Of a DNA stretch of 64,000 nt, positions 4,501 to 42,800 are shown piece by piece. Source of the DNA: Flaccisagitta enflata (lineage: Eukaryota); the NCBI GenBank assembly GCA_965153355.1, contig OZ231126.1, forward strand, positions 7,750,001-7,814,000, in the 5' to 3' direction. Within the stretch, counting starts at the first letter, position 1. Every line of letters begins with the position of its first letter. The position numbers and the translations under genes were made by a program. A model generated the notes under the pieces. That model had not been told where the DNA came from. It made no database searches and saw only the letters and a program-made list of their open reading frames with translations.

Positions 4501-5899
4501 ATTTTTGTTGTCATTATCATTCATTGTTGTCATCATCATCATCATCCACTATTGTTATCATTATCAAGTTTTGTCATCATTAAAACAATACTGAATATTT
4601 TTTTTCTTTTTGAAATTACTGTTTTGTCGTGTATCTCATCGAGTTGCGTTTACGCAACGAGAAAGCTTCAAAAATTACAGTCCCCAGTCGGGGACTGTAA
4701 TTTTGAAGCTTTTTCATTATCTTTCCCTGTCTCTTTCTCTCTGTCTCCTATAGATTCTTTATTTTCTTCCTCTTCCTCCTCTTCATCTTTCCAGCTTCTG
4801 ACCACCAATTGTTTCTTTCATAGATTCTTATTCTTCTTCTTCTTCTTTATCTATATTTCCAACCCACTTAATCTGTCATAAGTTCTTCTTCCTCTTCCTC
4901 TTTTCATCCCTCATCTTCTTTTACTCTCAGCAAATCCTCTTCTCCTTTTATTTCTCACCTTCTCCACTTCTTTTGTTCTCCCTCAGACCTAGGAATGCTT
5001 TTCCTCTTCCTCTTCCTCTTCCTCTTCTCCTTCAGTCTTTCTCTCATATGTTTCACTTTCCTCATATCAGCTTCTTCGTAATATTATATAATATTGTATA
5101 ATATTGTATTGTATTAGAAAAATAACAAAATAAACTATATGTATTGGGAAAACCCAATACACAGGAATATTGTAAACCCAATACCAATACCCAATACAAT
5201 TGCTCAGGCCTGCTTATAAGAGGAGGCCAGAATTCTCCAATTAACAAAGGATGAAAGCCTTGCAAGCTTTCAATGGTGTTTACTCCAGATTGCTCACAAC
5301 TATCCTTTACTACTGACAAACAAAAAGCTCACCTGACAAAACAATCAGCTTGACTGCATACCTCATTAGTATAGGGTTGGACAGGCCTATACCATTTAGT
5401 ATACATGTCAAATCGGCTCTGTTCCGGGAGCACCGGTGACCCCATTAACCTGCGTGTCTGGGTTAAGTAGTGCCGCAGACTCATGTATTCTGCGAGTCCT
5501 TAAGATCTATCTGTTAAAATAATCATCTCTCATATCTGACAGTTGGCTATACTAGTGCATAAATGAGATATTGATAACGTTGACAATAAGAAATTTTTAG
5601 GTGCGCCAACGCACCTCTATAACCGGTCGTGTTGGTTGGTCACACAAACCTTTCACAATCGAACCGGCGCGGCGCACCTATCGGCCTACTTGGCCTTGTT
5701 TATTCAGGATGTGTTCAGACATGACATTGAGAGAATTGATCATTTATTTGTCTCTTCTGCATTTGTTCACAGAAGGGATTTGTAAAAGCAACTTAAGGAG
5801 AAGGCCTTTTCTGTTTACAGGAGAGATTTGTAAAGACAACTTAGAGAGAACTGATCATTTATTTATTCTTCATCACCTGTTTTGTTCATAGGAGGGATA

Positions 5900-6499
5900 C
5901 CACGCGAATAAAAAAAAAAGACGCACCTCTTCATTTATAGATAGAGAAGACAGAAAAAGTTATCAAAAATATTTTTAGTTCAAGTAATTTTGAAGATTTT
6001 TTAATTTTCTTTTTATCCAGACCAATCCCAGGTCTGTATCTCAAACCGTTTAAAAGTTACAGCCTTTCAAAGTCAACCATTATTTTGAGCACATAAAAAA
6101 TATCTAATCATTGAGAAAATTGTTTGCCATTTCTATATCCAATGATAAAGCTTTAAAAAAGTTTTTTCAGACAAAACAATTTTGAAGATTTTTGAATTTT
6201 CTTTCATTCTAGACCAATCCCAAGTCTGTATCTCAAACGATTTAGAAGTTACAGCTCATCAAATTGAAACACTAGTTATCTTGCATTTTTTTCTCTTACA
6301 GAATTGTGAAAACGATTTATGACTTTTTTTACTGTTTTTTTACCATGCATAAACGCCTTAAGATAAAGGTTTTTTTCTTTTTGATCCTGAAAGCTTAAAA
6401 GCTACGCTTTCCAATGATGCAAAGCATTCAACTTGAACTCAATGAGAAAAGGGCTAAAATGGTCTTTTAAGAATGCGTCTTTTGTATTGATCCGCGTGG
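5900..6499. mobile_element. MITE, TA target duplication (Tc1/mariner-type)
   Basis: Ends TA|CCACGCGAATAAAAAAAAAAGACGCA ... TGCGTCTTTTGTATTGATCCGCGTGG|TA; related to 10396-10806. Confidence 0.75.
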
Positions 6500-39800: not shown

Positions 39801-42800
39801 TGCGTATGTGTGCGTGTGCGTAATTGCCTGTGCGCGTCCGTATTTGCGGGTGCGACTGAGTGCGTGTGCGTGTGCGGCTTTGTGTGCATCTTCTTCTTAC
39901 ATTTTCCATTGCAGGATGGTGACAAAGTATTGAGTGCGGAAGAGAGAGGAAACATGTTGGAAGATTTGCAGGACAAAAAAGAAGACATTGACAATAAACA
40001 AAAACAATTGGAGGAGCAACAAACTCACCAAGAAGAACTCCAAAAACAAAACAGTCGAGGTAAATGACAATGTCAATCAGCGAAAGCAATAACAAGTGCC
40101 GCAAAAGACTGAACAACAAACGCATAAACATAACGATTGAGATAAATGACAACAATAACATTCAGAGGGGCAACAAACTCAGCAGGAAGAACACTAATAA
40201 CTCGGAACAGTCGAGGTGAATGACAACGACAATAGATTTATAAAAACAACTACAAGAGCAGCAAACTCAGCAAGAACAAATTCAGAAATTAAGGATTCGT
40301 GGTATATGTCAGTGACATGACAATCAGTTAAAAACAATTTGAATAAAGCAACAATCCAAGCGGAAACAAATTCAGAAACAAATGATTCGTGGTATGTGTC
40401 AGTGACACAACAATCACATAACAAGTACCCCGGGAGTACAACGATGCGTCCACATGCGGCTTAGCTTGTAAATAATCTCTCTCTCTCTCTCTCTCTCACT
40501 CTCTCTCTCTCTCCCTCTCCCTCTCTTTCCAAACATTGCCTCAGCCCAATGTTAGAACCTAAAATGATGAATCGACTTTGAGATCGTTTTCAACGCAAGC
40601 GTGACGGACCAACTAACCAACGGACGGACAAAGCCTCTTATAGAGATGCATGGACGCATCTAAAAACAATTTGAATAAAGCAACAATCTAAGCAGAAACA
40701 AATTGGAGAAGTAGCAACAAAATCAATGAGAATTCTTTTTTAACAAGGCCGGATACATGGGCCAAGACGGTGCGCCGGGTGTTATTAATTCTTAGACCTA
40801 TCCCTAGCTCTATCAGACTTATCCCGAGCTATTTCAGGTCATCCTAGCATATTTCTGAATCATTTCCAGTGATTTCTGCTTCTTTTCGAGATTTTCAACT
40901 CGAGCGTGACCAACCGACCAACAGACAGAGCTAGTTATAGAGGTGCTATGGCGCACCTAAAAAGACGAGGTGAATGACTAACCGTCCAACGAACCGACGG
41001 ACTAAGCGCAAGCTACGCCTTACTGTAGTAGAGTCGTGGACCGCCACTGCAGAAGTCGAAGTGTACCAGGCTGCTATTTTCTACGCGCGTTTTCTTTCCA
41101 AACTGATTCACAACACAGATGTTGATACTTCTTTCAATACAGATGAGAGAAGACTGGAGTTGGCCTCAGAAGACGATTCAGATGATGATGGATCCATTTC
41201 TGTGAAGTCCAAGTTCATCGGTGGAAATGGAGTCTCAAATGACGAGTTTCAAGTACAGTAAATGTCGTCTTGACTTGGGAATACAAAACAATATGTTCTG
41301 TAAGAATATCGCTCTTTTAGTGATTGCAAGGGAGCATTACAGGCTATTCACACATAATATCACTCCCTAGCAATGGTTAAACGAGCAATATTACAAAATA
41401 TAATATTTAAAATTTAAAACAAATTTGATTTTAAGCAATATTCCTTCAAATTTTTTTTCACAATATTGTAATATTGTAATGTTTCATAATATTGTTCATA
41501 ATATTAACCAACACTCATATGCAACAAAGCATCCTTCTATTAATTTATATTCTAAACGTCAATCTTTTATATTCATTTATTTTCCATGTATGAATTCCCC
41601 CAAGTCTAGACAACATCTACTGTATATTCAAATGAATGGATGAGTAGAAAAATGAAAGATTGAATGATGAAAATAATCAAGGACAACCCTTCCGAATCTG
41701 CTAAGCTGCCGCGTAGCATAACAAGGCCCACACCTATAAGTCGCGTGCGGGACATAAAATAACTTAAGATCACTTTTATGGACTCAAGATGACTTTAAAT
41801 AACTCAAGACAACATTAAATGACTTAAAAAGACAATGACAATGACTACTTTGAGCTATTTCACTTAAGTGACTTAAAATAACTTAGAATGACTTTGAATG
41901 ACTTAGAATGACAAACAATAACTTAGAATGACAGAATGACTAGAAATAAAGTATAATAACAAAGACTAAAACAAAGACTAGAAATATAATATGATAACGA
42001 AGTAAACTGTGATGGACGGACGGACTGACAAACCGACAGACCGACGGACCAACAAAGCGAGTTGTAGAGTCGCGTGCACGCGACTAAAAAATACGGCAGA
42101 AGCTGCTGCGCTTTTCAAATCCACATCTGTGCATTCTGTTGGTGTTTTGTACTTGCTTCCATCCGTAAAACGACACCAGTAATTCAGCTTCCTTAAGAAG
42201 CATTCGGGTGGTAAGGGACTAAGGGTGAATGATGTAGGAATCACAGATGCACTCCGCCGCAGATATAGTGATGACCGAATGTAATATTACAGAAAGCCAG
42301 CATTTTCAAGTGTTAGCATGACGGCTACACTTAGGCGGTAAAGGGCCGTCACGGTGGCGTGGAGTGAATTGGAGTGACGTTGCCTCTGGAACTGCGCATA
42401 GCCACCTAGAACTAGTGGCGTCTCAGCGACCTTCATCTCAATCATGTGTACAAGTCGCAGGGCGTCATTTGTTCAGCATATGTAACCTTTCGAACAAAAC
42501 TCAAGATATTTGAAAGATAAGAGATTCTTGTATCGAATCATTCATACTTTCTCATTTTGTTTGTCATGAACCTTTTTATTGTAATTAGTATAGATTATGA
42601 TCTGACGATAAGAAATAGCTTTTTTCTTGACAAATAATGTTCATTGGTTTGTACGCAATTAAAAAACTGCAATATGCAAATAAGGATGAGGACGAATGGA
42701 TCGCCCAAAGATTTCATCAAATTTACACATTGGCGGATCTTTAGGTGCGACAAAGCACCCCTATAACTGGCTACGTCCATTGATCGGTCGAGTAACGCAT

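Follow-up and report, generated by a model that had tools for sequence, protein, structure and literature searches.

Exon edges repeated in the introns of a polycystin-2-like gene of Flaccisagitta enflata: dense arrays resembling mirage minisatellites

Why should the edges of exons recur in the introns that they border? The question is raised by a polycystin-2-like channel gene (PKD2) encoded on the plus strand of a 64,000-nt stretch of the Flaccisagitta enflata genome (C1:7750001-7814000, in the following referred to as the window; the genome comprises 794 Mb in nine contigs). A sequence-only reading had reported such copies, here termed echoes, at eight junctions of the gene and had put them down to a polarised, junction-centred duplication process. 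Echoes were detected by local alignment of every exon edge with the gene's own introns, a procedure that gave chance hits in 2 of 584 probes of junctions against foreign introns. An ungapped diagonal scan, which gave 4/260 junctions in a comparative sample from other genes, proved too strict, as it missed the array at 40059, and gapped probes were used instead.

Alignment with homologues by tblastn, combined with GT/AG borders, identifies 17 coding exons between 6825 and 44685 (Table 1), the join of which yields 776 codons without internal stop. The product is 58% identical to the polycystin-2 homologue P0004 over residues 76-797 of the latter, and the Pfam families PF08016 and PF20519 were matched on two of the exons. 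The exon chain is colinear with homologues, with no sign of an added intron or exon. Eighteen exons had originally been counted; an N-terminal eighteenth was not found, with nothing convincing in the 16.8 kb upstream of exon 1 in the window or in the 18 kb upstream of exon 1 of a second gene copy. All PKD2 junctions are deduced from homology and GT/AG borders, not from RNA.

Table 1. Coding exons of PKD2 and echoes of exon edges in the window
Feature	Position	Strand	Basis and details
PKD2 exons 1-6	6825-6938, 8920-8982, 9351-9479, 9734-9888, 27429-27513, 28386-28525	+	tblastn, GT/AG
PKD2 exons 7-12	29184-29360, 29656-29771, 33251-33396, 33679-33789, 34578-34680, 38595-38756	+	tblastn, GT/AG
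PKD2 exons 13-17	39322-39479, 39915-40059, 41143-41252, 43508-43678, 44443-44685 (stop)	+	tblastn, GT/AG
Distal, older cluster of acceptor 6825	5706-5912	+	decoy starts ~5708 (copy 5707-5757), 5773, 5821, 5892
Mirage at acceptor 6825 (exon 1), 71-nt unit	6510-6887	+	TRF period 71, 5.3 copies; unit alignment
Decayed echo of donor 6938, GT lost	8174-8207	+	28/34 identity to 6922-6955
Exon-internal copy (of 9821-9859) just past donor 9888, no donor	9903-9942	+	alignment
Mirage at donor 27513 (exon 5), 70-nt unit	27486-27667	+	2 decoys, one without GT
Mirage at acceptor 28386 (exon 6), ~160-nt unit	27798-28423	+	decoys 28219, 28060, 27900, decayed 27798-27847
Exon-internal copy (from 33335) directly past donor 33396, no donor	33403-33435	+	alignment
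Mirage at acceptor 33679 (exon 10), 93-nt unit	33428-33701	+	decoys 33586, 33501; ATTC microsatellite
Mirage at donor 40059 (exon 14), old	40101-40407	+	4 copies, 69-81% identical
Doubled acceptor 41118/41142 (exon 15), minimal, 24 nt apart	41111-41145	+	10/11 match

The reported echoes proved real, with corrections, and their interpretation found partial support. Seven of the eight agree by alignment, whereas the eighth, the doubled acceptor 41118/41142, amounts to the short match given in Table 1. A match of this quality occurred at 0/130 sample acceptors and in 1/2902 foreign pairings, and the doubling is retained in the second gene copy; on this comparison the doubled acceptor is probably real but minimal. 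Use of its upstream site, 41119, would add eight residues in frame without a stop. Units spanning the junction were found at acceptors 6825, 28386 and 33679 and at donors 6938, 27513 and 40059. The echo of donor 6938 had been overlooked in the sequence-only reading; it scores 43 against a null maximum of 25 in 79 stretches and is present in the second gene copy too. The copies after 9888 and 33396, which had been described as donor and exon-end copies, do exist, but they hold exon interior only and do not span the junction. They start at AAAGAA-like (9903) and CAGTC (33403) microhomologies, respectively, and look like duplications minus the donor half. Short microhomologies were found at several unit ends, and no counterpart of the 9903-9942 copy was detected in the second gene copy.

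In the proximal cluster of acceptor 6825, decoy exon starts at 6754, 6683, 6612 and 6541 precede the real site, and some 600 nt of other sequence separate this cluster from the distal one in both gene copies. Decoy 6683 is identical to the real acceptor over 71 nt while the nearest decoy is not, and the two nearest decoys form a 142-nt dimer duplication that is absent from the second gene copy. The units of the 28386 array include an ATTC/ATTG microsatellite. That the copies lengthen introns was borne out: echo spans account for 742 of the 872 nt of intron 27514-28385 and for 212 of the 282 nt of intron 33397-33678. Decoy splice sites are likewise created, many of which score no lower than the real site by sequence scores.

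The long intron 9889-27428 (17.5 kb) carries two antisense open frames, 15712-17019 and 20518-21870 on the minus strand, in which Kelch (PF24681, E 4e-53) and ankyrin repeats are encoded. No match to them was detected in 70 kb around the second PKD2 copy, where the corresponding intron measures 1.4 kb; nested genes or mobile cargo are possible identities. Upstream of the gene, a 521-codon open frame (272-1837, plus strand) matches no Pfam family at E 0.01; judged by eye, it resembles a retroelement reverse transcriptase. The 10 kb upstream of the window contain recent local duplications of ~560-700 nt that share 98-99% identity with a single stretch lying upstream of the second PKD2 copy. Elsewhere in the assembly, near-identical gene pairs (96.5-100%), often inverted and 50-250 kb apart, were seen for example at C9:61.46/61.62 Mb, at C9:36.86/37.03 Mb and at the loci L073/L074, which suggests uncollapsed haplotypes or recent segmental duplications.

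The second PKD2 copy, either a paralogue or an uncollapsed allele, serves as a natural control. It lies inverted at a distance of ~140 kb, with exons 1-14 at C1 ~7923300-7953400 (minus strand) and with exons 15-17 a further 2.7 Mb away on the opposite strand (C1 10669000-10678000, plus), a split such as would result from either an inversion or a scaffold in the wrong orientation. Over 14 exons the two proteins are 97.5% identical (dN 0.011, dS 0.196) and the intron lengths are very different; three other nearby gene pairs that were checked are 96.5-100% identical. The dN/dS of ~0.06 between the two PKD2 copies indicates purifying selection on the protein, and correct splicing must therefore be at least common. 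The second copy shares the arrays at exons 1, 5, 6, 10 and 14 with differing copy numbers, as at donor 27513, for which five copies are listed in the second gene copy versus two in the window. Six full decoys and one partial decoy make up an acceptor array at its exon 12, where the window has none at all. This comparison shows that the arrays turn over fast between gene copies.

Shared arrays with differing copy numbers also make misassembly very unlikely. The near-identical gene pairs, if they are uncollapsed haplotypes, would speak for assembly artefacts, but identity among the copies within arrays ranges from 69 to 100%, their differences are graded and tree-like, and orthologous exon-1 decoys of the two gene copies differ by one or two substitutions at a dS of 0.196 between the genes. 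Altogether, we give the idea that the arrays are artefacts hardly any credence.

If used, all eight spanning acceptor decoys and both donor decoys tested would introduce an early stop. Only the exon-proximal sites yield the open 776-codon frame that is colinear with homologues, and the authentic exon is thus the terminal unit of its array. AG is kept in 26/27 acceptor decoys and GT in 9/14 donor decoys of both gene copies with the exon-15 rows excluded, and in 35/36 and 19/25, respectively, when all listed arrays including those of the sample are counted; given that the copies are non-independent and the donor arrays older, this difference gives no more than a hint that selection acts more strongly against decoy donors. 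Early stops at ten of ten decoys, scores like that of the real site in many of them and the near-complete retention of AG might also be taken to mean that the decoys persist because they serve regulated unproductive splicing, tuning PKD2 levels via nonsense-mediated decay. Early stops are, however, expected of any such insertion, and the acceptor decoys descend from one another, with the decayed copy at 27798 having lost its AG. Moreover, donor decoys often lose GT, as has the 8174-8207 echo, and the array turnover between the gene copies, including one array that is confined to a single copy, argues against a conserved splicing role. In amphioxus, comparable arrays reportedly leave splicing undisturbed (PMC3087553, PMC3902484). 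Regulation by decoys therefore appears improbable to us. As natural reporters, the arrays lend themselves to the question of how one acceptor, the last among several with equal scores, comes to be chosen; they can also mislead gene prediction.

Copies farther from the exon had been said to be more decayed, which holds broadly for the acceptor arrays but not for the donor arrays. Identity with distance takes the values 0.98, 0.92 and 0.83 at acceptor 28386 and 0.96, 1.00, 0.94 and 0.90 at acceptor 6825, where the fall is not strict; in the donor arrays (0.83, 0.87 and 0.69, 0.81, 0.74, 0.74) there is no decay with distance. Decay away from the exon is in any case the null expectation because any single-unit tandem duplication yields monotone ages: in simulations of random single-unit tandem duplication the ages were monotone from the end copy in 20000/20000 runs, and a strict ladder from the end unit arose in 0.18% (seven units). 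The claim of a polarised process is thus not supported by the decay, and some recent duplications took place among decoys instead of at the exon. The observed arrays are not strict ladders. In the exon-10 array of the second copy and in the dynein C2 array of the sample, decoys are 0-1 differences apart and 5-9 from the exon (8-9 in the dynein array), so that the newest duplications lie among the decoys; together with the non-monotone donor arrays, these cases show that new copies do not always arise at the exon end. Such decoy-only expansions and the dimer duplication at 6825 are standard minisatellite turnover. On the other hand, in four arrays the most recent event involves the exon unit, and in the second copy the array at exon 12 is youngest at the exon, where a substitution absent from older decoys is common to the exon and the two decoys closest to it. 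Selection that fixes the exon unit as the best homology partner could bias expansion to the exon end without any targeting.

The claim that duplication is centred on junctions calls for a background rate. A profile search of the genome with myosin, kinase, SLC6, dynein and CCT profiles gave 141 consecutive profile-match pairs, from which 136 in-frame GT-AG introns and, after quality filters, 130 introns at 59 loci (260 junctions) were obtained; the kinase profile hit mostly long single exons and contributed one intron. Spanning echoes were present at 7/260 sample junctions. Two of the seven concern the same donor junction in two myosin paralogues, at C3:9.11 Mb and C8:56.04 Mb (loci L026 and L023), which may share descent; their spacing differs, and either shared ancestry or recurrence would account for them. 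Of 3758 intronic control probes 409 were covered by duplications and 157 represented an array's terminal copy, the latter being the fair analogue of a junction. With dispersed repeats excluded, 88 of 2394 unique probes were terminal copies, and the intronic controls overall amount to 3.7-4.2%. Against unique probes, the pooled junction/intron ratio for the 130 introns is 0.73 (bootstrap by locus 0.24-1.89). Sample introns below 1.5 kb gave 6/222 junctions versus 15/1166 probes, which speaks for some excess at junctions. Bins of raw intron length overstate the enrichment between 500 and 1500 nt, since echoes themselves lengthen introns; they were replaced by intron length minus echo, which gives a length-matched ratio of 1.63 (0.56-5.0). 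The result was unchanged across score thresholds of 28-60. Sorted by distance from the chromosome end, echoed junctions numbered 3/50, 2/88 and 2/122, counts too few for a conclusion. In this small sample there is consequently no demonstrable genome-wide excess at junctions, with an interval that reaches about 5-fold. The literature searched, in which most subscription papers were outside reach, yielded no genome-wide count of duplications at junctions versus introns.

Within PKD2 itself the claim fares better, as 4/32 junctions in the window are echoed versus 4/734 unique intronic probes. At the sample rate, the probability of at least five echoes in 33 junctions is 0.0018 with the sixth spanning echo (8174) left uncounted; the window was picked for its dense echoes, and such selection explains the excess only in part. 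A PKD-family effect is ruled out by the complete lack of echoes at 50 junctions of four other PKD loci. The excess in PKD2 bears on the proposal that mutation is targeted to junctions, for example by breaks or template switches at spliceosome-associated R-loops or by RNA-templated repair, and adds exon-end copies in at least some genes. Six spanning junctions in the window with a seventh in the second copy, the four arrays whose youngest copy adjoins the exon and the upper end of the length-matched interval are all in keeping with this proposal. The 59 other loci without significant excess, the unaffected PKD loci, the decoy-only expansions and the non-monotone donor arrays speak against it. 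Every unit has intron contiguous with exon, and a spliced mRNA template was accordingly not involved. We regard targeting of junctions as unlikely, albeit less so than regulation by decoys. If real, it would connect splicing with duplication in the germline and with the growth and gain of introns.

A similarly low probability attaches to the view that some genes are true hot spots of junction duplication, in which a process coupled to splicing or transcription would seed copies at the end of the exon and expand them anew. If this were so, about one fifth of the PKD2 junctions would be echoed versus ~0.5-1% of the gene's own unique intron DNA, and in the second copy the array at exon 12 would represent an exon-end ladder caught mid-growth.

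We instead consider it quite probable that these mirage minisatellites result from ordinary tandem duplication filtered by selection, at an unusually dense locus. Local tandem duplication, presumably through slippage, unequal exchange or microhomology-mediated repair, occurs throughout this repeat-rich genome. Wherever a unit of 25-160 nt caught an exon edge, the extra copies would land in the intron, where they may be near neutral as long as the spliceosome keeps to the exon-nearest site, whereas duplications entirely within exons would be purged by selection. Purifying selection would at the same time anchor the exon-bearing unit, which might thereby outlast the turnover of the intron and re-seed expansions. 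Decoys could later decay, multiply among themselves or be cut by insertions and deletions.

Arrays of this kind have precedents. For the amphioxus Adh3 mirage, somatic instability has reportedly been observed. The amphioxus mirages (Adh3, troponin C, the globins BflGb6/BflGb9 and PGBD5) are tandem minisatellites at exon-intron boundaries (PMC3087553) whose copy number varies between haplotypes (PMC3087553, PMC3902484). Measured against these descriptions, the PKD2 arrays have in common with them tandem units over 5' or 3' exon-intron boundaries with unit sizes within 10-160 nt, the preservation of many but not all splice signals, variable copy number and partial homogenisation. They differ in that a single gene has at least six spanned junctions, or seven when the second copy is included, in the two truncated exon-internal copies and in arrays split by insertions. 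In the 37-bp VNTR of human F7 intron 7, the first unit spans the donor as in PKD2, and the downstream pseudo-donors are identical in sequence and normally silent, as experiments have shown (PMC1557585). Unlike PKD2, F7 concerns one junction and a donor only, and the oriented-scanning result obtained with it refers to mammalian 5' sites and by itself offers no account of the choice of the last among equal acceptors. Models in which introns are gained via tandem duplication of segments containing splice sites (PMC3087553; PMC3265369) start from the same raw material, namely duplicated segments with AG or GT, whereas in PKD2 the gain of an intron or exon is not apparent. By its sequence features, the set of PKD2 arrays is a dense and clean member of the known mirage type of repeat, to which it adds a natural pair of gene copies, one having an array that the other lacks, as well as a background rate for junctions from a small sample.
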